A DNA stretch of 64,000 nt, from contig CAZJPV010000001.1 of assembly GCA_964547985.1 (NCBI GenBank), positions 51,797 to 115,796 on the forward strand, given 5' to 3'. Each line of letters begins with the position of its first letter. The first letter of the stretch is position 1. Shown here piece by piece: positions 2 to 28,348 of the stretch. Under the pieces are notes generated by a model. That model searched no databases. It saw only the letters and a program-made list of their open reading frames with translations, and was not told the DNA's origin. This DNA is from an uncultured Syntrophaceae bacterium. Lineage in GTDB: Bacteria > Desulfobacterota > Syntrophia > Syntrophales > UBA2192. The translations under genes were made by a program, and so were the position numbers.

Positions 2-661
2 CCCGCCTATTTGGCCGGCATACAGGAAGGGGACCGGATCATTGCCATCGAGGGAAAGGCGGTTTCCCGCTGGGGCGATCTCGCCGAAATCATCACGCAA
101 AGCGGGGGGCGTGAGCTGGTGATCACGCTGGCCAGGATCGACAAACGATTCGAAGTCCGGCTGAAGCCTGAACTCGCGACGGGCAAAAACATCTTCGGAG
201 AGGATGTGGAATCCTACCGCATTGGTGTGAGCTCCTCGACGAACACCTTCATCGAAAGGCAGAACCCCTTCGCGGCGCTCTGGTCCGGCATCCTCCAGAC
301 CTGGACCATCACGGAGTTGACGCTTTTGAGCGTTGTCAAAATGGTTGAAGGGGTCGTCTCCCCGAAGAATCTGGGGGGACCCATCCTCATCGCGCAGATG
401 GCCGGCGTCCAGGCGAAAAAAGGGATCATGAACTTTGTCTTCTTTATGGGACTTCTGAGCATCAACCTGGGCGTTCTCAACCTCTTTCCCATTCCGGTGC
501 TGGATGGGGGTCACCTTTTTTTCTACCTGATCGAGGCCGTGACGGGCAAGGAGGTCAACATCAAGTGGCGGGAAAGGGCCCAGCAGGTCGGATTTGCGAT
601 CCTCATTATGCTCATTATCTTTGTCTTTTACAACGATATCCTGAGGCTCTTTGGTGAGTAA
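2..661 (+). CDS. rseP: RIP metalloprotease RseP (5'-truncated by window edge)
   Basis: PDZ domain followed by GPILIAQMAG and NLFPIPVLDGGH (M50 NxxPxxxLDGG motif); frame open from window start. Confidence 0.93.
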   Translation, partial: PAYLAGIQEGDRIIAIEGKAVSRWGDLAEIITQSGGRELVITLARIDKRFEVRLKPELATGKNIFGEDVESYRIGVSSSTNTFIERQNPFAALWSGILQTWTITELTLLSVVKMVEGVVSPKNLGGPILIAQMAGVQAKKGIMNFVFFMGLLSINLGVLNLFPIPVLDGGHLFFYLIEAVTGKEVNIKWRERAQQVGFAILIMLIIFVFYNDILRLFGE

Positions 662-14780: not shown

Positions 14781-15385
14781 AAATTGTACTGGCATCAAAA
14801 AATAAGGGTAAAATCGACGAACTCAAATCAATGCTCCGGGATTGCGATGTGGAGATCCTTTCCCTGGAGGACTTTCCGGACATCCCGGACATTGAGGAAG
14901 ACGGGAAGAGCTTTTTTGAGAACGCCCTGATAAAGGCCAGAACGGTTTCACGTATTACAGGGGAGACGGTGCTTGCCGACGACTCGGGTCTCGAGGTGGA
15001 CGCTCTGGGCAGCGCACCCGGCATCTACTCCTCACGGTACGCCGGCCCGGACGCGACAGACGAAAAAAATATCCGGAAGCTTCTCGCTGAGCTCCAAGAG
15101 GTTGGTGCCGAAAACCGGGCCGCCGCATTCCGATGTGTCATCGTTCTTTTCCGGCCAGACGGGACGTTTGAGACCTTCGAAGGCTGCTGGCCCGGGAGGA
15201 TTCTATTCGAGCCGAGGGGAAAAGGAGGTTTCGGGTATGATCCGGTCTTCGAAGATTCGAAGCTCGGTCTTACGGCGGCGGAACTTTCACCGGACGTTAA
15301 AAATGCCATCAGCCATCGGGGGCAAGCCTTGACCCGGTTCAGGGAATGGATGGAAAAGACAGAGGTTAAGAGGACCAGAGGTTAA
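14777..15385 (+). CDS. rdgB: XTP/dITP diphosphatase (Ham1), probable CTG start
   Basis: [11 protein letters not shown] lies upstream of the first ATG (14831); [35 protein letters not shown]. Confidence 0.93.
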
Positions 15386-15473
15386 GAAGATTAGAAGTTA
15401 TGAAGATGAGATGAATGTGACAGAAAGCGTAGGATGATGGTCTCTTCCTGATCTTCTCAACTTCATAACTTCT
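15361..15473. repeat. 8-nt periodic GA-rich repeat with 19-bp inverted repeat
   Basis: Units agaggtta/agaggacc/agaggtta/agaagatt/agaagtta/tgaagatg; 15393-15411 matches the reverse complement of 15455-15473 with one mismatch. Confidence 0.7.
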
Positions 15474-15484
15474 TCATAGAACAG

Positions 15485-15561
<77 letters not shown>

Positions 15562-15571
15562 GAAAGTCCGG

Positions 15572-15602
15572 GGGCTCCGGCTCGTGTCGAAGCCCTTTTT
15601 TC
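15572..15602 (+). terminator. Putative intrinsic terminator after tRNA-Pro
   Basis: gggctccggc-tcgt-gtcgaagccc stem followed by T7. Confidence 0.65.
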
Positions 15603-15740
15603 ACGCGGAATGCGGTTCGGAATCCGTTATGCGGTGTTTATGTCACCTTTCGATTCGAATTGAGTATCACGGCCTTTTCTGCTAAATGGACAGATGAGAG
15701 AAGCGCCGTTACATGAAACGCTGTGGCAAGGGGATGGGTG

Positions 15741-16298
15741 ATGAGGTTTTTGTCGGCGGTCTTAAGTGTTCTTCTGGTTGTCATGGGATGCACACAGATC
15801 CCTGAGGGCCTGGAGCCCGTAAAGGGTTTCGATGTTGAAAGGTATCTCGGCAAATGGTACGAGATCGCAAGACTCGACCACTCCTTCGAACGCAATATGA
15901 GCAATGTGACGGCCGAATACTCACGGGGAAGCGGGGAGGAGATCCAGGTCCTGAACAGGGGCTTTGACATTCAAGAAGGGCAGTGGCGGGAAATCAGGGG
16001 TGTGGCCTGTTTTATCGGCGAGAAGAATATCGGGAGTCTCGAGGTATCCTTTTTCGGCCCTTTCTGGGGAGGATACCACATTATAGTTCTGGAGCGGGAA
16101 AACTACGGTTACGCCATGGTCACGGGTCCCAGCCGGTCCTATCTGTGGATTCTCTCCCGGGAAAAGACGCTGGACGAGCCGGTCCTCGCCGACCTGATTT
16201 CGAGAGCCAGGGCCTGGGGATTTGACACAGACCGGTTGATTTTCGTGGAGCACGACATGCCGGCCATGAATGTGTCCGATGCTCGAATGCATGGTTAG
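15741..16298 (+). CDS. blc: Bacterial lipocalin lipoprotein
   Basis: Lipobox VMGC; RYLGKWYEIARLDHSFER, LEVSFFGPF, YLWILSR. Confidence 0.92.
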   Translation: MRFLSAVLSVLLVVMGCTQIPEGLEPVKGFDVERYLGKWYEIARLDHSFERNMSNVTAEYSRGSGEEIQVLNRGFDIQEGQWREIRGVACFIGEKNIGSLEVSFFGPFWGGYHIIVLERENYGYAMVTGPSRSYLWILSREKTLDEPVLADLISRARAWGFDTDRLIFVEHDMPAMNVSDARMHG

Positions 16299-16322
16299 AT
16301 CTATTTTTCCGAGAGGTCAGAT

Positions 16323-17789
16323 ATGAGCAGGGAACATGTCCTGTCGATCATGAAGGGGTTCATCTTGATCGGAGTGGCGCTCCTGGTCGTGTCCTGTGCC
16401 GTCAACCCCGTCACCGGAGAGAGGGATCTCATGCTGGTCAGCGAAGAGGATGAAGTCAAACTCGGCCGGCAGACCGATGTCGGGGTGACTCAGGAGTACG
16501 GTCTCTACGATGATCAGAGGATGACGGACTATGTCAATGAAATGGGCCAGCGACTGGGCAAACTCTCACACCGTCCGGAGCTGGACTGGCATTTCAAGGT
16601 CCTCGACGCTTCCGTGGTCAACGCGTTTGCCGCCCCCGGGGGCTATGTTTATTTGACCCGGGGAATCCTCGCCACACTGAACAGCGAGGCGGAACTCGCG
16701 GGGGTCATGGGCCATGAGATTGGCCATGTCACGGCCCGTCATTCAGCACAGCAGATCAGCAAGGCCCAGATGGCTCAAGTCGGCCTGACCGGGTTATCCA
16801 TCGGCCTCGGAGTATTGGGCATCCCGGGCCTGTCGAACCTCGCGGAGCTCGGCGTTGGGGTCCTTTTTTTGAAATTCAGCAGGGACGACGAGCGGGAAGC
16901 CGACACATTGAGTATCGAATATGCCACGAAGGCGGGATACGATGCCTCTCAGATGGCAGGCTTTTTCGAAACGCTCCAGCGTATGGATTCAACATCGGAC
17001 CGCAGCGGACTGCCGAGCTGGTTCTCTACGCACCCGAGTCCCGAAGACCGAGAGAAGGCCATCCGGATCCAGTCGAAACAAATGCAGCAGAAAATGGGCC
17101 TCAGGGATCCAAAGATTGACCGGGAAGATTACTTGAGATCGATCGACGGTATCATCTACGGCGATGACCCGAGGCAGGGATACGCGGAAGGAAGTGTTTA
17201 TTACCACCCCGGAATGCGATTCCAGTTTCCCGTGCCGGCGGAGTGGAAGGTCAATGACACCCCGGCCGCAGTCCAGATGGTGAGCCAGAAGAAAGACGCC
17301 GTGATCCTCTTTTCCGGGGCGCCCGGGACGACGCCGCCCGACGCGGCACAAAAGTTTGTTTCCAAGACCAAGGCCAGTGTCCTCAGGAGCGATGAAACCC
17401 ACGTTCACGGATACCCAGCCCGGCGGGTCCTCTCCGATGTGACGAGCCAGAAGGGGACCATCAGGGTCCTGTCCTTCTTCATTCAGAAAGAAGAGGCCAT
17501 TTTCGCATTTCACGGCATGAGTTCCCAGCGCACTTTTCTCCAGTATGAACAGACTTTCAGTGACACATTCAGCGGGTTTGAAGAATTAAAGGATTCCAAG
17601 AAGCTAAACGTGCAGCCGGACCGTATCAGGCACCGGATCACAAAGAAGACGGACACCATCGAGAATGCCCTCCGGACGCTCGGTATCCCCGGTGATAAAG
17701 TGAAGGAGGTGTTGGTTCTCAACGGCATGACACCGGGACAGACCCTTCCCGCCGGCACGCTGATCAAAGTCGTCGATTATGGACGATAA
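16323..17789 (+). CDS. M48 family Zn-metalloprotease lipoprotein (BepA-like N-terminus, LysM-like C-terminus)
   Basis: Lipobox VVSC-AVNPVTG; NAFAAPGG, HEIGH, FSRDDEREAD, STHP. Confidence 0.9.
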   Translation: MSREHVLSIMKGFILIGVALLVVSCAVNPVTGERDLMLVSEEDEVKLGRQTDVGVTQEYGLYDDQRMTDYVNEMGQRLGKLSHRPELDWHFKVLDASVVNAFAAPGGYVYLTRGILATLNSEAELAGVMGHEIGHVTARHSAQQISKAQMAQVGLTGLSIGLGVLGIPGLSNLAELGVGVLFLKFSRDDEREADTLSIEYATKAGYDASQMAGFFETLQRMDSTSDRSGLPSWFSTHPSPEDREKAIRIQSKQMQQKMGLRDPKIDREDYLRSIDGIIYGDDPRQGYAEGSVYYHPGMRFQFPVPAEWKVNDTPAAVQMVSQKKDAVILFSGAPGTTPPDAAQKFVSKTKASVLRSDETHVHGYPARRVLSDVTSQKGTIRVLSFFIQKEEAIFAFHGMSSQRTFLQYEQTFSDTFSGFEELKDSKKLNVQPDRIRHRITKKTDTIENALRTLGIPGDKVKEVLVLNGMTPGQTLPAGTLIKVVDYGR

Positions 17790-17863
17790 GAATCGGAATT
17801 TTATGCAGGGGTGAAGACCACGGAAGACCGGGGCTCGGGGGTTGGATCATCAGAGCCGTTCGG

Positions 17864-17890
17864 AGGCCGTCCTATCGGATGGCCTTTTTT
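17864..17890 (+). terminator. Intrinsic terminator after M48 gene
   Basis: aggccgtcc-tatc-ggatggcct followed by T-run, between convergent genes. Confidence 0.8.
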
Positions 17891-18375
17891 CAGAACCGGA
17901 TTTTGTCACCGACCTTGACACCCTTTTTCCTGAACCAGCCCCGGTTCACCTCGAGGGCGTAGAGGACAGGAGAGCGTGAACTGCAGGTCTTCTCCGAGAG
18001 AGGGGTCAAGGGGAGGATCTCCGTGATCATTCCATCGGCAGAGATAAAGGCGATGTCAAGAGGAATGGTCGTATTCTTCATCCAGAAGGCAAGGTGCTGC
18101 GCTTTTTCATAGACGAAAAGCATCCCCCGGTTCCAGGGGAGACTTTCCCTGAACATGAGTCCCCGGGCCTGTACTTCCGGTGTGGAGACGACCTCGACCC
18201 AGAGAACGGCAGAACCGACGGAAATCCTTGCCAGGCGAGAATCGGCAGGCAGGGTCGCCTGAGTGCTGCCTGCCTCGGGTGTCGAAACCTGGCAGAAGAC
18301 CGCCGTCTGTAAAAATGAGAAGAAACACAAGAGGGCTATGGGCCACACATTCGACCGGTTCATAAAGCCTGTCAT
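17890..18375 (-). CDS. DUF192 family protein
   Basis: RGLMFR, GMLFVY, FWMKNTTIPLDIAF, ALEVNRGW; signal peptide. Confidence 0.92.
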   Translation of the reverse strand: MTGFMNRSNVWPIALLCFFSFLQTAVFCQVSTPEAGSTQATLPADSRLARISVGSAVLWVEVVSTPEVQARGLMFRESLPWNRGMLFVYEKAQHLAFWMKNTTIPLDIAFISADGMITEILPLTPLSEKTCSSRSPVLYALEVNRGWFRKKGVKVGDKIRF

Positions 18376-19745
18376 CCTCTTTGGGTTTTTGCACCCAGTT
18401 TGAGCAGGATGGCGTTGAGTATGTCCTCGACCATCTTTCGCTCGACCTGGAGGGTTTCAGGGGTGGATGCCTCGAAACGCAGCACCAGGACCGGTTGGGT
18501 ATTTGAAGCCCTCACGAGCCCCCAGCCGTCGTTGAAGATGATGCGCACGCCGTCGATCTCGATCGTCTTGTAATCCTTCCGGAAATATTTCTTGATCTCC
18601 TGGGTGGCCTTGAACTTCAACTCATCAGGGCAGTCGATCCGGATCTCCGGCGTGGTGTAGCTCTTCGGTACGTCGGCAAGAAGCTCGCTTAATTTCTGTT
18701 CCGTCCCCGACAGGATTTCCAGCAGCCTCACGGCTGCGTACAGGGCATCATCGTATCCGAAGTAACGGTCGGCAAAGAAGAGGTGACCGCTCATTTCGCC
18801 TGCCAGCACGGCTTTCTCCTCCTTCATTTTCCCCTTGATCAGGGAATGACCCGCCTTCCACATCACAGACCGTCCGCCGTGCTTCTCGATGTCGTCGTAG
18901 AGCCGCTGGGAGCATTTCACCTCCCCGATGATGGTGGCACCGGGCCTTTCCTTCAAGACAAAGCGGGAAAATAGAAGCAGCAGCTCATCTCCCCAGAGGA
19001 TCTCCCCCCGGTCGGTCACGACGCCGATCCGGTCGCCGTCACCGTCGAGACCGATGCCGACATCGGCTTTTTCTTGAAGAACGCCCTGGATGAGTTCCTT
19101 CAGATTTGCCGGGACGGTGGGATCGGGGAAGTGGTTTGGAAAACGGCCGTCCATGTCACAATAGAGGCACGTGACCCGGCAGCCGAGTTTCTTCAGGATC
19201 GGCGCGATAAAATATCCGCCCATACCATTTCCACCATCGACGATGACCCTGAGTCCCCTGCGGAGTTTCACATTCTTAAAGAGGAAATCCCCGTACGCCT
19301 CTGTCACTTCGGCCGTCCTGGCGGCACCACGACCGGCGACGTACACCCCTCTTTCCATGATCCGTCTCAAAGCCTGAATATCTTCGCCGTAGATCGTGTC
19401 CGGACCCACACAGATCTTGAAGCCGTTGAACTCCGGCGGGTTGTGGCTTCCCGTCACCATCACGCCGCCGTCGCTGTTGTAGTGACGAATAGCAAAATAA
19501 AGCATGGGGGTGGCACAGAGACCTACGTCGGTAACGTTCATCCCCGTGGCCATCAGTCCTTCCTTCATGGCACCGGCGTATTCTTCCGAGCTGAGGCGGC
19601 AATCTCTTCCCAGGACCATCGTCCGGACCCCTCTTTCGGCCCCGAACGTGCCGATGGTCTGCCCAAGGTTGTAGACCAATTCGAAGTCGAGGTCCCGTCC
19701 GACCAGACCCCGGACATCGTATTCCCGAAATATTTCCGGATTCAT
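18372..19745 (-). CDS. Phosphomannomutase/phosphoglucomutase (AlgC type)
   Basis: IFREYDVRG, TGSHNP, DGDGDR, GEMSGH, RASNTQP. Confidence 0.95.
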   Translation of the reverse strand: MNPEIFREYDVRGLVGRDLDFELVYNLGQTIGTFGAERGVRTMVLGRDCRLSSEEYAGAMKEGLMATGMNVTDVGLCATPMLYFAIRHYNSDGGVMVTGSHNPPEFNGFKICVGPDTIYGEDIQALRRIMERGVYVAGRGAARTAEVTEAYGDFLFKNVKLRRGLRVIVDGGNGMGGYFIAPILKKLGCRVTCLYCDMDGRFPNHFPDPTVPANLKELIQGVLQEKADVGIGLDGDGDRIGVVTDRGEILWGDELLLLFSRFVLKERPGATIIGEVKCSQRLYDDIEKHGGRSVMWKAGHSLIKGKMKEEKAVLAGEMSGHLFFADRYFGYDDALYAAVRLLEILSGTEQKLSELLADVPKSYTTPEIRIDCPDELKFKATQEIKKYFRKDYKTIEIDGVRIIFNDGWGLVRASNTQPVLVLRFEASTPETLQVERKMVEDILNAILLKLGAKTQRG

Positions 19746-19870
19746 TGATTGCTCCGTTGAAAAATTTCAGGATGAATACCATAAAACCGCTGTGAGCACA
19801 ACCAATGAAGGGTGTTTTCAGCGGGTCTCCTGACCTCGCATTTGTCTGACGTAAAGACACCTTTTTCTTC

Positions 19871-19899
19871 TTGACATTTAAAAAAGCTTCGTTTATGAA
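19871..19899 (+). promoter_or_regulatory. Putative sigma70 promoter of the leader/ABC operon
   Basis: TTGACA, 17 nt, TATGAA, about 35 nt upstream of the leader ATG. Confidence 0.55.
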
Positions 19900-19934
19900 T
19901 AAACCCATAAAAAACAAAGGGAAGTAAACTCGAA

Positions 19935-20015
19935 ATGTCATACAGCAAAGGCAGCCTCCTCGGCTTTTTTAGCTTTTTCGGCTTTTTTGGCGAGGTCTGC
20001 CTGATGCGCTCATGA
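19935..20015 (+). CDS. Phe-rich attenuator leader peptide MSYSKGSLLGFFSFFGFFGEVCLMRS (PheL-like)
   Basis: Translated by hand; 6 Phe codons in three pairs (19965-19988); aaaggga upstream; overlaps the alternative helices. Confidence 0.8.
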   Translation: MSYSKGSLLGFFSFFGFFGEVCLMRS

Positions 20016-20109
20016 CATGAACTTCTGAGAAATTGAGCCGCGGGTAGACCGGAAAAGGGACCGCGGCTTTTTTATAGTTCAAGGCCGTGGGTAATCCCGC
20101 GGCCTTTTT
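19949..20109 (+). promoter_or_regulatory. Ribosome-dependent transcription attenuator with two tandem terminators
   Basis: 1:2 = 19949-58/19992-20002; 2:3 = 19994-20012/20034-50; 3:4 terminator = 20036-43/20061-68 + T6; 5:6 terminator = 20081-91/20096-106 + T-run; 4:5 = 20061-70/20081-90. Confidence 0.8.
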
Positions 20110-20137
20110 AATTTCGTTCATTGAGGAGGGATGAAAG

Positions 20138-21343
20138 ATGAAGAGATATCTTCTTATGACGACCGTTATGGTTATGATGCTTGCGGCACTTTGCCTGCCG
20201 GCGCAGGCATCAGCCGCCGAGATGATCAAGGTCGGCGCCGCTATCAATCTCACGGGCCCCGCTTCGACCTGGGGGCAGTTTCACGCCAAAGGGCAGCAGG
20301 ATTATTTCCGCTACGTCAACGAAGTCAAGGGCGGTGTCGCGGGCAGGAAGATCGACATGGTTCTCGTCGACACGGCTTACAAGGTTTCGGAGGCTGTAAC
20401 AGCGGTCAGAAAATTTGCGACCCAGGACCATGTGGACATGATCGCCACCTGGGGAGCCGGTGAGGGACTCGCCGCAAAACCGATCGTCCAGAAATACAAG
20501 ATACCCACCATCAACTATTCGACGAGCTGGGAGATCCTGGAGGCGCCAATTGAATACATGTATCTCCCCTTCGGGAGCTATCGGCTCGACTGCTACGCTG
20601 TCCTGGAATACATCCGCGCAACCCACAAGGGAGCCGAAACGCCGAAGGTCGGGCTTCTCACCTACAATAACGCCTACGGCCGATCCATCCACAAGCCCAG
20701 CCAGGAATACGCAACGAAAATCGGGGTCAACATCGTCGCCATCGAGGAATTCCCACCCAAGACGGTGGACCTGACCACGGAGCTTTTGCGTCTGAAAAAA
20801 GCGGGGGCGGATTACGTCTTCATGCAGATGCTTCCGGCGACCATCGTCACGGCCTTTAAAAGTGCGGATCGCATGGGTTACAACCCCCAGTTCTTCGGGA
20901 CCTGGACCTCCACGGACCCCGACTTCTTCAAACTGGGGAAAGGACTGATCCGAAATCGATTGAAGATCCAGTTTTCCGGAGGGCTGCCGGCGGATAAATC
21001 GAAGGGGATGGCGCTCATGAGAGATCTGTGGAAGCGCTACAAGACGGTGGATCGTTTCGACGCGGCCTACTGGGAAGGAGTCGTCGTCGGCATGATCATG
21101 GAGAGAGCCTTTCAGCGTGCCCATGAGAAATACGGCAAGGTCAACCGAGAGACGATCAACATGGCCATGGAATCATTCAAGGACGAGGATTTCGGCGGCC
21201 TGATGCCGAAGCTTACCTACACGAAAACGGATCATGAGGGGTCCTTCGCGGGAAGGATCGTGCAGGTGAAAGAGGATGGCAATTTCATTCCCCGGACAAA
21301 CTTCTACAGTCCGGGCAGAGAAAAAATGAAACTTCTGAAATAG
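20138..21343 (+). CDS. ABC transporter substrate-binding protein (LivJ/K-type, HAAT family)
   Basis: Signal peptide; IKVG..NLTGP, YVNEVKGGVAGRKI, YNNAYGR; SD gaggaggg. Confidence 0.9.
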   Translation: MKRYLLMTTVMVMMLAALCLPAQASAAEMIKVGAAINLTGPASTWGQFHAKGQQDYFRYVNEVKGGVAGRKIDMVLVDTAYKVSEAVTAVRKFATQDHVDMIATWGAGEGLAAKPIVQKYKIPTINYSTSWEILEAPIEYMYLPFGSYRLDCYAVLEYIRATHKGAETPKVGLLTYNNAYGRSIHKPSQEYATKIGVNIVAIEEFPPKTVDLTTELLRLKKAGADYVFMQMLPATIVTAFKSADRMGYNPQFFGTWTSTDPDFFKLGKGLIRNRLKIQFSGGLPADKSKGMALMRDLWKRYKTVDRFDAAYWEGVVVGMIMERAFQRAHEKYGKVNRETINMAMESFKDEDFGGLMPKLTYTKTDHEGSFAGRIVQVKEDGNFIPRTNFYSPGREKMKLLK

Positions 21344-21359
21344 CGGGGCCCGAGTATTC

Positions 21360-22205
21360 ATGAAGGCATTTCGAGGTCAGCCCAGCATTTATGCGGAGAC
21401 GTTGAACCAGGAAAGAAAGGCCGAGCTTTTCGTGAAGGGTTTGACGCTTCGCTTCGGCGGGGTCGTGGCACTGAGTGCCATCGACCTGGACGTCCAAACA
21501 GGCGAACTCGTCTCTATCATCGGTCCCAACGGTGCGGGGAAGACCAGTCTCCTCAACTGCATCACGGGTTACTATCGGGGTCAGGAGGGGCAGATTCTTT
21601 TCAATGCCAAGGACATCACGAGTCTACCGACCCACAGTCTGATCGAACATGGCATCGGAAGGACTTTTCAGAACATCGAGCTTTTTCCCGGCATGACGGT
21701 TCTTTCCAATCTCCTGCTCGCCCGCCATGTCCACTGTCGCTATCCATTCGGACAGGCGGCCTTCTTCACGAAGAAAGTCAGACAGGAGGAGGTCCGGCAT
21801 CGGGAGGTCCTCGAGGAGATCATCGATTTTCTGGAGATTCAGCCGATTCGGCACAAACTGGTGGGCTCACTCCCCTACGGGCTCCGGAAGCGATTGGAGC
21901 TGGGCAGGGCCCTGGCACTGGAGCCCAAACTTCTCATTCTGGATGAGCCCTTTGCAGGGATGAACCTCGAAGAAAAGGAAGACATGGTCCGCTTCCTTGT
22001 CGAACTGAACGAAACCTGGCGTCAGACGATGATCCTGGTCGAACATGACATGTCGATCGTGATGAGCATATCGAAAAGAGTAACCGTACTTAATTTCGGT
22101 GTGAAAATCGCAGAGGGATCACCGGAGCATGTCCAGTCGCACCCGGAAGTCGTTCGGGCCTATCTCGGCGGAGACGGGGAAAGAGGTACAGGGGAGGGCG
22201 GCTGA
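21360..22205 (+). CDS. ABC transporter ATP-binding protein (LivG-like)
   Basis: GPNGAGKTS, RTFQNIELF, LPYG, LILDEP, VEHDM, VVRAYLG. Confidence 0.92.
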   Translation: MKAFRGQPSIYAETLNQERKAELFVKGLTLRFGGVVALSAIDLDVQTGELVSIIGPNGAGKTSLLNCITGYYRGQEGQILFNAKDITSLPTHSLIEHGIGRTFQNIELFPGMTVLSNLLLARHVHCRYPFGQAAFFTKKVRQEEVRHREVLEEIIDFLEIQPIRHKLVGSLPYGLRKRLELGRALALEPKLLILDEPFAGMNLEEKEDMVRFLVELNETWRQTMILVEHDMSIVMSISKRVTVLNFGVKIAEGSPEHVQSHPEVVRAYLGGDGERGTGEGG

Positions 22206-22209
22206 ATCG

Positions 22210-24156
22210 ATGGCAAAAGCTGCAGATCTGATCAGGGTGGCTCCCGATGTCCTTGTATCATTCGGGCGTCTCACCCTTCCGCAGGTCCTGGCCGATCAGG
22301 CCAGAAGGATGGACCCTTCACGGGTTGCCATCCGTGAGAAGGCCTACGGCATCTGGAAAACCTACAATTGGCAGACCTACCTGGACTATGTCCGTCAGAC
22401 GGCCCTCGGTCTCGCCTCCCTGGGACTTCGCAGGGGTGAAAACATCGGCATCGTCACAAACAATCACCCGGAGTGGCTTTTCAGCGAGGTCGGTGGGCAA
22501 TCGGCGGGGGCCGTCACCATGAATCTCTTCACCTCGTCGGCTCCCGAGGAACTGGCAACGGCTCTGAGCCGGATCAGGGCGACCATCGTCATTGTCCAGG
22601 ACCAGGAACAGGTGGACAAGCTCCTGGAGATGAAGGCCAGACTGGGCCATATCCGGCAGGTCATCTACGTCGACCCCACCGGGATGCGAAGATATGTAAA
22701 CGATCCATGGCTCATTTCCTACAGCGAGCTTCTGGACCGGGGCAGAAGACTCGACCTCGAGGAACCGGAACGATTTTCCAGGGAACTGGCCCGTGGGAAG
22801 GCAGGTGACGTAGCCCTCATGATCCAGACCTCCGGCACGACGGGCATCCCGAAGCTCGCCATGCTCAGTCACCGCAGCTTTACCGAGATGGCCCGTCAAT
22901 GGCTCGAGACGGCGCCCATCGGCATCGGGTCCAACTGGATCTCCATCACGCCACCCGCCTGGATCGTCGATCAGATGTGGGGCGTCGGGATAACCCTCGC
23001 CGGCGGCATGACCATGAATTTCCCCGAAACTCTGGAGACGGTGGATGAGGATTTCCGTGAAATCGGCCCCTCCGTGATCATCACCTCCTCCCGTTTCTGG
23101 GAGGATCTGGCTTCGAAAATCCGGGTCAAGATGGACGATGCCGGATGGGTCAAAAAAAAGATTTTCAAAATCGCTGAAAGGATCGGAATGAAGGTCGTGG
23201 ACCTCGAGTCCCGCAAAGAGTCCATCCCCGCCTGTCTCGGGTTTCTCAACGCCGTGGCCTCCCGGCTCGCCTTCCAACCCCTTTTGGACCGCGTGGGCTG
23301 CTCGCAGATGGTCAGCGCCTACACGGGGGGTCATCCGATCAGCCCTCAGGTGATCCGGTTCTTCCGGGCCATCGGTCTCAACCTCAAGCAGTGTTATGGC
23401 CTGACGGAATCGGGGGGCATCTTCCAGGTCCAGCCCGACGGGGAGTTCAAGCTCGAGACGGTTGGGAAACCCCTGCCGCGGACGGAGGTGCGGCTCTCCC
23501 CCGACCAGGAAGTCCTCGTCAAGAGCCATTCGGTCTTCGTCGGCTATTACAATGACTATCAGGCCACCGAAGCGGCATTCACGAACGGCTGGCTCCGGAC
23601 CGGTGATGCCGGATATCTGGACGAAGATGGTCATCTTCTGATCATCGGGAGAAAGGAAGACATTATCCGCAACAAGCAGGGAGCGGCATTTTCGCCCGAT
23701 TTTGTCGAGACGCGCCTGAAATTCAGCCCCTATATCAAGGAAGCGGTTGTTTTCGGCGAAAGCCGGCCCTATCTCACGGCGCTCGTCAATATCGACATGG
23801 GAAACGTGGGCAACTGGGCGGAAGACCGCATGATCCCCTACACGACCTACACGGACCTCACGCAGCAGATGGAGGTGGAAAAACTCATCCACGGCGAGGT
23901 TCAGGAGGTCAACGGGCAGCTTCCCGACCCCATGAAGATCCGCAAGTTCATTCTGCTCTACAAGCTCCTCGATGCCGATGACGAGGAATTGACGCGGACC
24001 GGAAAAGTGCGCAGGCGATTTGTTTACGGCCTCTATATCAAGCTGATCGAGGCCATGTACGAAAATAAGGATTCCCTGGAAGTCCGGGGGCAGGTCCGTT
24101 ATCGCGACGGACAGGTCGGCACACTGGAAACCAGGGTTCGGGTGATCACGACATAG
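22210..24156 (+). CDS. AMP-forming acyl-CoA synthetase (long-chain-type ANL family)
   Basis: TSGTTGIPK, YGLTE, GWLRTGDAG, ELTRTGKVRR. Confidence 0.9.
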   Translation: MAKAADLIRVAPDVLVSFGRLTLPQVLADQARRMDPSRVAIREKAYGIWKTYNWQTYLDYVRQTALGLASLGLRRGENIGIVTNNHPEWLFSEVGGQSAGAVTMNLFTSSAPEELATALSRIRATIVIVQDQEQVDKLLEMKARLGHIRQVIYVDPTGMRRYVNDPWLISYSELLDRGRRLDLEEPERFSRELARGKAGDVALMIQTSGTTGIPKLAMLSHRSFTEMARQWLETAPIGIGSNWISITPPAWIVDQMWGVGITLAGGMTMNFPETLETVDEDFREIGPSVIITSSRFWEDLASKIRVKMDDAGWVKKKIFKIAERIGMKVVDLESRKESIPACLGFLNAVASRLAFQPLLDRVGCSQMVSAYTGGHPISPQVIRFFRAIGLNLKQCYGLTESGGIFQVQPDGEFKLETVGKPLPRTEVRLSPDQEVLVKSHSVFVGYYNDYQATEAAFTNGWLRTGDAGYLDEDGHLLIIGRKEDIIRNKQGAAFSPDFVETRLKFSPYIKEAVVFGESRPYLTALVNIDMGNVGNWAEDRMIPYTTYTDLTQQMEVEKLIHGEVQEVNGQLPDPMKIRKFILLYKLLDADDEELTRTGKVRRRFVYGLYIKLIEAMYENKDSLEVRGQVRYRDGQVGTLETRVRVITT

Positions 24157-24171
24157 AAAGGTGTGACCGGT

Positions 24172-25050
24172 ATGGACTTCTTTATTCAACTTCTGGTGAA
24201 CGGCATCAGCATCGGTTTCCTCTACGGCCTCTCCGCCATGGGATTCGTGATGATCTTCAAGGCATCGAGTGTCCTCAATTTCGCGCACGGCGAGCTTTTG
24301 GCCCTAGGGGCCTTTTTGTTCCTTGCCCTCGTGACGTGGGCGGAGCTTCCCGTGGCGGCCGCCTTCATCTTGACCCTGGCCGGGACGTTCGTGTTCGGTT
24401 TTATTGTTGAACGCCTCTTTCTCCGCCCGCTCATCGGGGAACCCCTGATCGAGATCATCATGCTGACCGTGGGGCTTGCCGCCATGTTCAAAGGCGCACT
24501 TCTTCTCATCTGGGGCGGGAATCTTTATACCTATCCCGATCTATTACCCGAGTTTCTCGCATGGAGCTGGGGCGTCGTTCAGGTGCCACCGGTTTATGTC
24601 TCGGCTATTTTCATGGGCATCGTCTTCCTTTTGCTCTTCGGGCTCTTCTTCAAATACTCCTCCCAGGGGATCTACATGCGCTCCGTGGCGGATAACCAGC
24701 CGGCGGCTCTCTCCCTGGGTGTTCACGTGCGGCGGGTTTTCGCCCTGTCGTGGGCGATCGCGGCCCTGGTGGCGGGAATCAGCGGGATCATCCTCGGTCT
24801 CATCAACGGCATCAACGTCCACGAGTTGAGCTCCATCGGCCTCAAGGTCTTTCCCGTGGTCATTCTCGGCGGGCTCGACAGCATCAGCGGGGCCATCATC
24901 GGCGGTATTATCATCGGTCTGCTGGAGACCATGACGGGAGGCTATCTGTCACCGTCGCTGCGGGACGTGATTCCCTACATCGCTCTGGTCGCGATTCTGC
25001 TGGTCCGGCCCTATGGACTCTTCGGTCTCGTGGAAATCGAGCGGGTTTGA
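24172..25050 (+). CDS. ABC transporter permease (LivH-like)
   Basis: VLNFAHGE, GIYMRSVADN, VILGGLDS, VRPYGLFG. Confidence 0.92.
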   Translation: MDFFIQLLVNGISIGFLYGLSAMGFVMIFKASSVLNFAHGELLALGAFLFLALVTWAELPVAAAFILTLAGTFVFGFIVERLFLRPLIGEPLIEIIMLTVGLAAMFKGALLLIWGGNLYTYPDLLPEFLAWSWGVVQVPPVYVSAIFMGIVFLLLFGLFFKYSSQGIYMRSVADNQPAALSLGVHVRRVFALSWAIAALVAGISGIILGLINGINVHELSSIGLKVFPVVILGGLDSISGAIIGGIIIGLLETMTGGYLSPSLRDVIPYIALVAILLVRPYGLFGLVEIERV

Positions 25051-25064
25051 GGGGAGGCTGGAAA

Positions 25065-26138
25065 ATGCTTCGAAGATTCAGGTTCCATCCCTGCGGTAAC
25101 TACAGGGACCATTACGAAAAGGAGCTTACGATTTTCGAGACGGACTTCGGCCGCCTCTGGATGACCATCGGCCTCTGTGTGCTTTTCGGCCTCGTGCCCT
25201 TTCTGCTGGGTTCCTATCCGCTTTACATTATCAATATGATCGGTATAGCCGCCATCGCGGCTTTGGGACTCAACATCCTCGTGGGATACACAGGGCTCAT
25301 CTCCCTGGGACACGGGGCCTTCTTCGGCGTGGGCGCTTATGCCGCAGCCATTCTCGCGACGGAATGGAACTTTCCGATCCTTCTCGCACTTCCCGCCGCG
25401 GGCCTTATAACGGCGCTGGTGGGCATGATCTTCGGCCTGCCCTCCGTGCGGTTGAAAGGGCTTTATCTCACTATTGCCACCCTGGCCGGCCAGTTCATTA
25501 TTGAATATATCCTCCTCCACTGGGAGGGTCTCACCAAGGGCACCATGGGCATCATCCTCCCCGAGGCAGGGATCTTCGGCTTAACCGTAACCGGTGACAG
25601 GGGTTATTTCTTCCTGATTTATCTCTGCCTCGTCCTGATGACGTGGCTTGCCGTAAATCTCGTGCGTACGAAGTTCGGAAGGGCTTTCATCGCCATCCGG
25701 GACAACGACCGTGCCGCAGAGGGGATGGGCATCCCCGTCTTCCGTTACAAGCTTCTTTCCTTCGGGATCAGCTCGTTCTACGCGGGGCTCGCAGGCGCCC
25801 TTTTTGCCTATTACATGATCAGCATTACCACGGAACCATTCAATCTCATGCTTTCCGTCGAATACATCGCCATGATTATTATCGGGGGCCTCGGCAGCAT
25901 CACGGGGACCATTTTCGGGGCCATCTTCATCACCGGGCTGAACGAAGCCCTGCGGTGGTACACAGACTGGCTCATCAACGTGGGGGGTATTACCGGTGTG
26001 GAGCTCACGGTTGCTCCCCTGAGGGAGTTTGCCTTCGGTCTGGCCATAGTACTTTTCATTCTTTTCGAGCCCAAGGGCTTGGCGGAGCTCTGGCGAATCA
26101 TCCGCTCCAGTTTCAGACTCTGGCCCTTTTCCTATTGA
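25065..26138 (+). CDS. ABC transporter permease (LivM-like)
   Basis: GYTGLISLGHGAF, RLKGLYLTIATL, GRAFIAIRDN, IIGGLGS; SD ggggagg before ATG 25065. Confidence 0.92.
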   Translation: MLRRFRFHPCGNYRDHYEKELTIFETDFGRLWMTIGLCVLFGLVPFLLGSYPLYIINMIGIAAIAALGLNILVGYTGLISLGHGAFFGVGAYAAAILATEWNFPILLALPAAGLITALVGMIFGLPSVRLKGLYLTIATLAGQFIIEYILLHWEGLTKGTMGIILPEAGIFGLTVTGDRGYFFLIYLCLVLMTWLAVNLVRTKFGRAFIAIRDNDRAAEGMGIPVFRYKLLSFGISSFYAGLAGALFAYYMISITTEPFNLMLSVEYIAMIIIGGLGSITGTIFGAIFITGLNEALRWYTDWLINVGGITGVELTVAPLREFAFGLAIVLFILFEPKGLAELWRIIRSSFRLWPFSY

Positions 26139-26147
26139 GGTGCCTTC

Positions 26148-26951
26148 GTGAACGACAAGATCCTATTACAGATCAACAACATCGGCGTCGTATATTCTGA
26201 CGTGATTCAAGTCCTGAAAGGCGTTTCGCTATCCGTGCCGGAAAACCGGATCATCTCGCTTTTGGGGAGCAACGGCGCCGGAAAGTCCACCACCCTCAAG
26301 GCCATTTCGGGCCTCCTCAAGACTGAAAACGGCAAGGTCACGGAGGGCTCCATTCTTTACGACGGGACCGAGATTCACAACCTTCCGCCCGAGACAATCA
26401 CCCGCCAGGGGATCATCCAGGTCCTGGAGGGTCGACAGCCTTTTAAATACCTCACCATCGAAGAGAATCTCCGTGTGGGGACGGCCACTCGCTTCGGGAA
26501 ACCTTACAAGGAAGACCTGGATCTGGTGTATGCCTATTTCCCGGTCCTGGTGAAACGGAGAAAGACCCTTGCGGGTTACTGCAGCGGCGGGGAGCTTCAG
26601 ATGCTCGTCATCGGCCGAGCTCTCATGGCCCACCCAAAGCTTCTGCTCCTCGATGAACCTTCGCTGGGGCTCGCACCGATGGTGGTTCAGGAAATCTTCA
26701 GGATCATCCGGCGCATTAACGAAGAGCAGGGGACGACCATTGTCCTTGTCGAGCAAAACGCCAACATGGCCCTTCAGATCGCCCATCGCGGCTATGTGAT
26801 GGAAAACGGCAAGATCGTCATGGAGGGCGATGCTGCCGAGTTGCGAGAAAACCCGGATGTCAAGGAATTCTATCTCGGCATGGGCGCGACGGGGATAGCG
26901 AAATCTTACCAGGATGTGAAGGCCTATAAGCGAAGAAAGAGGTGGCTCTAA
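26148..26951 (+). CDS. ABC transporter ATP-binding protein (LivF-like)
   Basis: GSNGAGKST, SGGELQML, LLDEPSLGLAP, EQNA, VKEFYLG. Confidence 0.92.
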   Translation: MNDKILLQINNIGVVYSDVIQVLKGVSLSVPENRIISLLGSNGAGKSTTLKAISGLLKTENGKVTEGSILYDGTEIHNLPPETITRQGIIQVLEGRQPFKYLTIEENLRVGTATRFGKPYKEDLDLVYAYFPVLVKRRKTLAGYCSGGELQMLVIGRALMAHPKLLLLDEPSLGLAPMVVQEIFRIIRRINEEQGTTIVLVEQNANMALQIAHRGYVMENGKIVMEGDAAELRENPDVKEFYLGMGATGIAKSYQDVKAYKRRKRWL

Positions 26952-26953
26952 AA

Positions 26954-27062
26954 GGTCTATTTGGTCTGTTTAGTCTCTTCAGTCTGTCTGGTCACTAGGT
27001 CCGGACAGGATAGTCATCTTACGACAAAATAGACCAGAAAGACGAAAAAGACCAGATAGACC
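26954..27062. repeat. 9-nt periodic repeat array forming a 40-bp imperfect inverted repeat
   Basis: Left arm 26954-26993 (ggtctattt/ggtctgttt/agtctcttc/agtctgtct) and right arm 27023-27062; 30/40 matches counted by hand. Confidence 0.75.
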
Positions 27063-27088
27063 CATCAGGCGTGAACAGGGAGGTGGAA

Positions 27089-28348
27089 ATGAAAATAGGG
27101 GGGACCCGGCGAGTCTTTTACGACGAGAAAGAGACGAGGTCGATCGCGAGGAGGAAACGTGACCAGAATACAAAACTGGCCCGGATGATCCGGAGGGCCT
27201 ATGAAAAATCGAAGGGCTACCGTAAGATGCTCGATGATCACGGGATTGACCCATCAAAGATCCGGTCGGTAAAGGATCTGGAGAGGCTACCGGTCATTTC
27301 CCGACCAAAACTCATCGAGATGGAAATGGGAGATCCCCCTTACGGAGGATTCGAAAACCCGACAGCGGCCGTCGATCGGGTTTTTATCTCGCCCGGTCCC
27401 GTCTACGAGCCCCACCTCCCGGAAGACGACCCCCTGTGGGCACGGGCTTACTGGGCCGCGGGCTTCAGGCCGGGTGACATCGTCCTCAACGCCTTTTCTT
27501 ACCACCTCGTCGCTGCGGGTCTCACCTTCCACGGCGGACTTCGCCGGGTCGGCGCCACCGTCATTCCCTCCGGAACGACAAGCAGTGACATTCAGGTTCA
27601 GCTCCTGCGCGATCTCAGGATCACAGGCTTTACGGGGACACCCAGTTTTCTTGCGGCCCTCATCAAACGCGCCGAGGAACTCGGTTTTGATTTCCGGAAA
27701 GACTTCACGCTCCGGCGTTCGAGCTTCGCAGCCGAGCCGTTGGAAGCCTCGCTCCGCAGACGTTTCGAACAGGACTACAGCATCGACACCTATCAAATGT
27801 ATGGCGCCACAGAGGTGGGCGATGTGGCTTACGAGTGTCCGGAAAAAAAGGGGTGGCACATTTGTGAAGAGGTCATCGTCGAGATCGTCGATCCGGAGAC
27901 GGGAAAAGCCGTTTCGAACAATGAGCTGGGAGAGGTTGTTGTCACGAGACCGAACGACATATTCTATCTCTTCCGTTTTGCCACCGGTGACCTCTCATCC
28001 ATCATCGAAGAACCCTGTCCCTGCGGAAGGACCTCCCATCGGCTGAACGGCATCACCGGCAGGGTAGGGGACGCCGTCAAGGTCCGGGGGATGTTCGTCA
28101 CGCCAAGCCAGCTCAAGAAAATCGGGGAGCTACTGCCGGGGATTAAATTCCAGTTAGGGGTTGATCGTAGGGCGCACAGGGACATCCTGAAGGTTCATCT
28201 GGAAAGAACGGGAGACGAGGCGGCACTGCGGTCACGGTTCGAAAAGGCCTTCCGGAATCTTTGCACTGTGAGCATTGATGAATGTGAATGGGTCGAAACC
28301 GGGACGCTGGATGGCGATCTCATAAAGGATCGCCGTCACTGGAAATAG
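27089..28348 (+). CDS. Phenylacetate-CoA ligase (PaaK)-like adenylate-forming protein with divergent P-loop
   Basis: PaaK-type N-terminus (IRSVKDLERLP), GFRPGD, YGATEVG, EIVDPETG, RFATGD, GRVGDAVKVRGMFV; FISPGPVYEP in place of SSGTTG. Confidence 0.8.
   Translation: MKIGGTRRVFYDEKETRSIARRKRDQNTKLARMIRRAYEKSKGYRKMLDDHGIDPSKIRSVKDLERLPVISRPKLIEMEMGDPPYGGFENPTAAVDRVFISPGPVYEPHLPEDDPLWARAYWAAGFRPGDIVLNAFSYHLVAAGLTFHGGLRRVGATVIPSGTTSSDIQVQLLRDLRITGFTGTPSFLAALIKRAEELGFDFRKDFTLRRSSFAAEPLEASLRRRFEQDYSIDTYQMYGATEVGDVAYECPEKKGWHICEEVIVEIVDPETGKAVSNNELGEVVVTRPNDIFYLFRFATGDLSSIIEEPCPCGRTSHRLNGITGRVGDAVKVRGMFVTPSQLKKIGELLPGIKFQLGVDRRAHRDILKVHLERTGDEAALRSRFEKAFRNLCTVSIDECEWVETGTLDGDLIKDRRHWK

Follow-up and report, generated by a model that had tools for sequence, protein, structure and literature searches.

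A Predicted Six-Segment Phenylalanine Attenuator with Two Terminator-Like Hairpins, Conserved in Syntrophales

Introduction

Can one stalled ribosome switch two terminators standing in series? The question is raised by a leader within a stretch of 64,000 nucleotides from an uncultured Syntrophaceae bacterium, the whole of which is called the window here. Two terminator-like hairpins, T1 and T2, are located there between a phenylalanine-rich leader open reading frame (ORF) and the first gene of a transporter operon. Textbooks describe leader-peptide attenuation, and nearly all cases known to us are one-terminator leaders from Proteobacteria and Actinobacteria. A sequence-only reading of the locus had divided the leader into six RNA segments. 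It assigned pairs 3:4 (T1) and 5:6 (T2) to the OFF state and pairs 2:3 and 4:5 to the ON state, and suggested that the ribosome acts on both hairpins through this relay.

Results

Leader Region and Operon

A promoter-like site is located at 19871-19899 (+) and consists, by direct reading, of TTGACA (19871-19876), a 17-nt spacer and TATGAA (19894-19899). We infer this site by eye because the consensus scan did not list TTGACA-17-TATGAA. The same-genus orthologues L002-L004 have retained both TTGACA and the TATGAAT downstream of it. The leader ORF, MSYSKGSLLGFFSFFGFFGEVCLMRS, spans 19935-20015 (+) and is comprised of 26 codons of which six encode Phe (19965-19970, 19974-19979, and 19983-19988). 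The Shine-Dalgarno-like sequence AAGGGAAG was read directly at 19917-19924 (+), and GGAGG-like words are present at the equivalent place in same-genus orthologues. A Phe-rich ORF ending in ...EVC(L/P)... was found in 19 of the first 20 loci examined. At the orthologous binding-protein locus L009 (1754-1954, -) the leader ORF is divergent, with many F, Y, and W residues (MCFFMVWADKDWGIYDFYFCFSPEERCPIHA), and T1 occurs without T2.

Three of the parts expected of a ribosome-mediated attenuator are present. A short ORF enriched in Phe codons is predicted together with its ribosome-binding site, terminator-like hairpins with T-runs are predicted between this ORF and the first structural gene, and the antiterminator helix 2:3 excludes 3:4, with segment 2 overlapping the end of the leader ORF. 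In the minimum-energy fold of 19900-20140, segment 1 (19949-19962, +) is paired to 19991-20002. This 1:2 helix is paired in only 39% of cells on the orthologue alignment A2, because those columns are poorly aligned. Segment 2, the 5' arm of the antiterminator, lies at 19994-20012 (+) in the last leader codons, and its 3' end lies just ahead of the stop codon. The 2:3 helix has an energy of -25.2 kcal/mol. A four-codon frame, ATG AAC TTC TGA, is located at 20018-20029 (+), just past the leader stop codon and between segments 2 and 3.

The putatively regulated operon (20138-28348, +) was classed by Pfam and NCBIfam as a LIV-type ABC transporter/CoA-ligase operon. Its first gene is preceded by the Shine-Dalgarno sequence GAGGAGG (20124-20130, +; direct reading), which is conserved in alignment A1. 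Pfam matches on the plus strand identify a Peripla_BP_6 binding protein (20138-21343), a LivG-like ATPase (21360-22205), an AMP-binding ligase (22129-24156), two BPD_transp_2 permeases (24163-25050 and, as listed, 24750-26138) and a LivF-like ATPase (26148-26951). The last gene encodes a PaaK-like AMP-binding ligase (27071-28348, +) which the NCBIfam PaaK models match below their cut-offs. The seven genes are probably carried on one transcript, as judged from their spacing. Under Phe control, such an operon might serve to take up phenylalanine itself or, as a precursor, aryl acids such as phenylacetate. Upstream, a phosphoglucomutase family gene (18372-19745, -; Pfam) is divergently oriented. 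A tRNA gene was predicted at 15485-15558 (+) of the window (Rfam tRNA, 67.4 bits). A search of sequencing runs for RNA from window positions 19700-20700 returned none.

Two Hairpins and Their Alternative Pairing

T1, the 3:4 hairpin, is a predicted terminator-like structure at 20035-20069 (+), or 20035-20073 with its T-run. Its stem of 9 bp joins 20035-20043 to 20061-20069 and, by direct reading, TTTTTT follows at 20068-20073. T2, the 5:6 hairpin, is also predicted to be terminator-like and occupies 20081-20106 (+), or 20081-20109 with its T-run. Its stem of 11 bp joins 20081-20091 to 20096-20106 with one G-U pair and the loop TAAT, and is followed by TTTTT (20105-20109). Direct reading thus bore out the second hairpin and T-run that the sequence-only reading had placed at 20081-20109. 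Folded alone, T1 has an energy of -19.9 kcal/mol (z -3.3) and T2 of -22.0 kcal/mol (z -5.8), values equaled by none of 200 shuffles in either case. The consensus terminator scan listed T2 as terminator-like and missed T1 due to its 17-nt loop. The resemblance noted earlier between the hairpins was also found, as the 5' arms of both contain GCCG(C/T)GGGTA, and the suggestion that one arose by duplication of the other is compatible with the data.

Segment 3 (20034-20050, +) can pair with segment 2 or, via 20035-20043, with segment 4. Segment 4 (20061-20070, +) is made up of the 3' arm of T1 and the first U residues, and its partner is segment 3 or segment 5. Segment 5 (20081-20091, +) is the 5' arm of T2. 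The claimed complementarity of segments 4 and 5 was reproduced in full: 20061-20070 pairs with 20081-20090 over 10 bp including two G-U pairs, at -15.1 kcal/mol, and two of 200 shuffles were equal. A weak U-tract had been described after this helix; no U-tract is present 3' of 4:5.

The duplex of segment 4 with the T2 5' arm (-17.5 kcal/mol) was compared to a background built from 329 terminator-like hairpins in this genome, of which the 5' arms were used (mean -8.1, sd 3.2). Three of the 329 arms reach -17.5 kcal/mol, including that of T2 and that of its counterpart in a paralogous attenuator. The T1/T2/4:5 feature is real, conserved, and beyond chance. The GGCCGUGG stem was ruled out as the usual terminator of the genome, since the word is present in only six of the 329 hairpins. 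A terminator for convergent genes was also ruled out because the upstream gene is divergent.

Conservation in Orthologous Leaders

Leader DNA was matched in 159 of 339 Syntrophales genomes. Alignment A2 was drawn from 110 loci, of which 109 matched and 103 were distinct, and one of these could not be parsed, giving 102 leaders. T2 was called where a hairpin of -8 kcal/mol or better was directly followed by at least four T. Absence of T2 from orthologous leaders had been named beforehand as evidence against the proposal, and T2 was found in 98 of the 102 distinct leaders. It is missing in L011, L075, L100, and L110. T1 without T2 was also seen in the binding-protein loci titled Smithella/Smithellaceae (L124, L126, L129, L131, and L133) and in L157, all with 7-9 T after T1 by direct reading. 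Its absence from 4/102 leaders and from the Smithella-type loci means that T2 is dispensable. Two copies of the Phe leader with the binding-protein gene are present in some relatives (G018 contig C9, two places), and G275, G276, G216, G315, and G318 have two leader matches each.

The proposed anatomy, with 3:4 and 5:6 as one set and 2:3 and 4:5 as the other, holds across the 102 leaders. Paired cells amount to 92.8% for 2:3 (17 pairs, four with changes on both sides), 94.5% for 3:4 (a consensus stem of 13 pairs, four changed on both sides) and 95.2% for 4:5. The value of 85.3% for 5:6 is lowered by loop misalignment. As a control the partner was slid by one to three columns, which gave 33-44% pairing. 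Median energies in the orthologues are -27.4 (2:3), -24.9 (3:4), -15.3 (4:5), and -15.9 kcal/mol (5:6), so 4:5 and 5:6 are near-equal in energy in typical orthologues. The GGCCGTG of segment 5 is at least 90% invariant. T2 always lies 7-23 nt past T1. The T-run after T1 has a median length of six in the 98 leaders with T2. In six leaders of a neighboring genus the U-tract of T1 is broken (CCTTTCTG or GCTTTTCTG) and T2 is followed by 7-8 T. Regulation in those six leaders must therefore reach T2.

Similar Attenuators in the Same Genome

We found the T1 and T2 layout in a further four leader-peptide attenuators of the genome, either paralogous or analogous and all outside the window. They are located at L166:255-470 (+) before a DAHP synthase gene, L167:245-450 (+) before the anthranilate synthase component I gene trpE, L288 at about 120-385 (+) before a TrpB-like gene, and L287:1815-2075 (-) before ilvB, the large subunit gene of acetolactate synthase; downstream genes were identified by NCBIfam. 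The DAHP synthase leader (aro) reads ...SYWWFGFYYYGGQVCP... with W/F/Y codons, the trpE leader ...SWWWQRF..., the TrpB-like leader ...GWWWCP... and the Val/Ile-rich ilvB leader ...VVVGVVVVVIV... The codon runs fit the genes behind them. The 4:5 duplexes have energies of -18.1 (DAHP synthase), -13.3 (trpE), -18.4 (TrpB-like), and -15.2 kcal/mol (ilvB), against background means of -5.4 to -8.4. Background arms as good number 1, 3, 0, and 10 of 329, respectively. Among the 339 genomes a matching leader was found in 222 for aro, 29 for trp, and 190 for ilvB. The median 4:5 duplex is -14.2 kcal/mol for trp (23 of 27 parsed) and -14.3 kcal/mol for ilvB (30 of 30 parsed).

Automated scans differed in what they recovered. 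A terminator finder limited to perfect stems and loops of 3-9 recovered no tandem pairs and overlooked T1. A looser version gave 82 tandem pairs, most of them within genes. After filtering for 4:5 only the Phe, aro, and trp leaders were left, along with three weak pairs and a pairing of the trp leader's 1:2-type hairpin with its T1. Of 43 matches to a loose regular expression for the module, three were real. The ilvB and TrpB-like leaders were recognized by eye among the listed motifs.

An intergenic repeat of about 100 nt is dispersed through the genome in at least 13 copies, one of them directly past T2 of the trp leader, at about 448-540 of L167 (G000 contig C10 from 26947). The repeat also follows T1 in L110 and L118, including a Phe leader of another genome in which T2 is missing.

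Allowed Changes in Segments 4 and 5

In Phe and trp leaders segment 4 reads CC(A/G)CGGC and segment 5 GGCCGUGG, and in Phe leaders the base facing the segment-4 C is G in 101 of 102. In aro leaders segment 4 reads CCAUGGC and the base opposite the U in segment 5 is A (62) or G (26). With CCAUGG in T1 in place of CCACGG, the T2 arm reads GGCCAUGG or GGCCGUGG and never carries a mismatching base. C-A or A-C combinations were present in none of the 132 leaders parsed with T2, as counted by a parser able to read only purine-pyrimidine at these two positions. The parser was given 160 leaders, of which 10 failed and 18 were without a T2 call; several of the 18 have an imperfect T2.

The aro leaders were examined further in alignment A3 (90 leaders). 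T1 is paired in 93.7% and T2 in 94.7% of cells, and 15 of their pairs are changed on both sides, a number matched by none of 500 shuffles. The 4:5 helix is paired in 96.4% of cells, but this was reached by 168 of 500 column shuffles, and 4:5 covariation within the 90 aro leaders did not rise above the shuffles. In the Phe family only three of the ten 4:5 pairs are changed on both sides. Segment 4 hardly varies, so the support for 4:5 comes from conservation and from one switch between families, in comparisons whose related leader sequences are not independent. A central 4:5 mismatch is present in L229, L261, L265, and L266. These mismatches follow compensated changes inside T1 or T2, and 3:4 and 5:6 are kept.

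The lower part of the T2 5' arm, opposite segment 4, is near-invariant. Beyond the 4:5 helix the T2 stem varies with compensation, as in aro columns 188:206 (CG 39, UA 20, GU 7, and AU 4). The lower stem of the ilvB T2, GCCGC/GCGGC, faces segment 4 and is constant in 30/30 leaders, while the upper stem differs in nearly all.

Folding Energies of the Alternative States

All five helices (1:2, 2:3, 3:4, 4:5, and 5:6) can fold in the window. With a ribosome mask on 19950-19982, 2:3 is kept in the minimum-energy fold after T1 is complete, and with the 3' end at 20094 the minimum-energy fold is 2:3 with 4:5. These masked folds are equilibrium snapshots and not kinetics. Among the window states 2:3 with 5:6 (-47.2 kcal/mol) beats 2:3 with 4:5 (-40.3 kcal/mol) by about 7 kcal/mol. 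Given the greater stability of 5:6 (-22.0) over 4:5 (-15.1), a relay is only possible if the RNA is kinetically trapped.

Discussion

Proposed Relay

The locus is, as predicted from its sequence, a conserved six-segment attenuator. The sensor would be a ribosome-mediated leader-peptide attenuator responding to charged tRNA-Phe, in which six RNA segments would pair domino-like and control two intrinsic terminators in series. When Phe is plentiful, the ribosome at the stop codon would cover segment 2, or in the absence of translation 1:2 would form. The 3:4 hairpin would then close and stop most polymerases, and those that leak past T1 would meet 5:6. When Phe is scarce, a ribosome stalled on the first Phe codons would cover segment 1, and segment 2 would take segment 3. 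Segment 4, left without a partner, would capture segment 5 once it is transcribed and before segment 6 exists. T2 could not then close in time, and polymerase would enter the transporter operon. Because the helices are chained, one ribosome decision would set both terminators. This would probably lower the basal level and leave the induced level unharmed, and a longer window over which the stall must persist may be a further gain.

That a single stalled ribosome disarms both terminators is considered probable. The earlier suggestion of such a relay is favored by the repetition of the layout in four further attenuators and by the masked fold at 20094. Within-family covariation of 4:5 and the preference for 5:6 once segment 6 is out do not favor it. 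Since 5:6 wins at equilibrium, the antiterminator must win by forming first. We infer that T1 and T2 terminate and that 4:5 forms in vivo and delays 5:6 for long enough.

A more specific version of the relay is tentatively offered. T2 may be a later, second checkpoint on the same ribosome decision, a kinetic proofreading of starvation that forms the standard design of Syntrophales amino-acid attenuators. A ribosome that resumes early would release segment 3, segment 4 would be retaken and segment 5, now free, would let T2 close. The 4:5 helix would last only as long as 2:3, so early resumption of translation would re-close T2 and a persistent stall would be demanded.

Alternative Explanations

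The main rival account is that T2 is an unconditional fail-safe which stops a fixed share of polymerases in the ON and OFF states alike, with 4:5 a by-product of the copying of T1. The stems of T1 and T2 are near-copies, and stems so nearly identical would give 4:5 complementarity after a duplication kept by other constraints. The shuffle results for 4:5 within families, the thermodynamic preference for 5:6 in the window and the lineages that tolerate a 4:5 mismatch or lack T2 all agree with this account. Selection for the hairpin alone should, however, let the whole stem drift with compensation, and only the part outside 4:5 does so. The base facing the segment-4 U is polymorphic (A/G) whereas that facing C is fixed as G in nearly every Phe leader. 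A hairpin as strong as T2, with its perfect GC-rich stem and 5-8 U, would shut down five operons if it acted unconditionally 15 nt upstream of the ribosome-binding site. Where the U-tract of T1 is broken, termination would fall mainly to T2, which must then be regulated. The fail-safe is for these reasons judged unlikely.

Control of T2 by a trans-acting factor in place of segment 4, such as an RNA-binding antiterminator or a processing enzyme that recognizes GGCC(G/A)UGG hairpins, is less credible still. In its favor, conservation of the lower T1 and T2 stems extends to their sequence and not just their structure across four operon families, and GCC(A/G)(T/C)GG occurs in only 6/329 terminator-like hairpins, most of them in attenuators. 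No candidate gene was found adjoining any locus, and amino-acid specificity, already provided by the leader codons, would not come from a common factor. The ilvB lower stem differs (GCCGC) and still keeps its 4:5 complementarity, and the A/G polymorphism obeys base-pairing with segment 4.

Stable 5' hairpins can protect mRNAs, but a role for T2 outside attenuation, as a stabilizing 5' stem-loop, a processing site of read-through mRNA or the terminator of other transcription, has no specific point in its favor and is very improbable given the full terminator signature with a U-run directly after the stem in the 98 leaders, the constant placement of T2 shortly past T1, and the divergent phosphoglucomutase family neighbor, which leaves no other transcript to be ended at T2.

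Comparison with Known Attenuators

The relay reading has a formal parallel in the his operon leader (hisL) of Salmonella and E. coli. That leader has segments A-F, in which A:B, C:D, and E:F alternate with B:C and D:E. The Phe leader likewise has a leader peptide with a run of regulatory codons, two alternative pairing sets (1:2, 3:4, and 5:6 vs. 2:3 and 4:5) and six segments that would relay the ribosome position to the last hairpin. There is no sequence relation between the two. In hisL the last helix, E:F, is the sole terminator, whereas here the middle helix 3:4 is also terminator-like with a tract of six U (20068-20073), giving two stop points. A six-segment relay in which the middle helix is itself a terminator would be a new form of his-type relay attenuation.

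Tandem riboswitches and tandem T-boxes also have two terminators per leader, which sharpen the response, and each terminator has its own sensor domain. T1 and T2 are separated by 11 nt in the window, and in the orthologues the gap between the arms is 7-16 nt. This spacing leaves no room for a second sensor, and the Phe leader has a single one. Phe leaders are covered in Rfam by the family Phe_leader. A cmscan search of window positions 15000-25000 (E ≤ 1) gave no match to Phe_leader, Trp_leader, His_leader, or other Rfam leader families, and returned the tRNA only.

As in the pheA (pheL) and pheST attenuators of Gammaproteobacteria (PMC3082878), a short ORF with a Phe run is placed to control a downstream terminator. 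Those attenuators have four segments and one terminator and regulate biosynthesis or a tRNA synthetase and not a transporter. The need for the antiterminator to form first and pre-empt a more stable terminator is shared with trpL of E. coli, where a 1:2 pause hairpin synchronizes ribosome and polymerase (PMC4615214). The trpL leader has one terminator, and the "first" and "second terminator hairpin" named in that paper are 1:2 and 3:4 (PMC4615214). The nearest case found in the literature is the rimP-leader of some Gammaproteobacteria, which has a second terminator in tandem and a potential antiterminator (PMC2965389). In the sections of that article considered here a leader peptide sensor or a 4:5-type relay is not described, and the stem motifs are mutually inverse and not alike (PMC2965389). 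The portion of PMC1262725 that was searched contained no match to the terms sought. A literature search with supplementary files and most subscription journals outside its range returned no account of two relayed terminators in a leader-peptide attenuator and no work on leaders from Syntrophales.

Conclusion

These leaders suggest that a whole order of syntrophic bacteria has a modular version of the attenuator for at least five operons, in which one sensing event may be passed to two terminators. Several leader families are added beyond those in Rfam, where the search covered the Phe leader window only. The LIV-type transporter/aryl-CoA-ligase operon is marked by its leader as a likely part of a phenylalanine supply system. 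If the relay works it would offer a simple route to less leakiness without lost induction, or to the demand for a sustained signal, and would be useful for understanding regulation in slow-growing anaerobes and for the design of synthetic RNA switches. If T2 does act as a second checkpoint, the response would be steeper and less noisy than that of any single-terminator attenuator.
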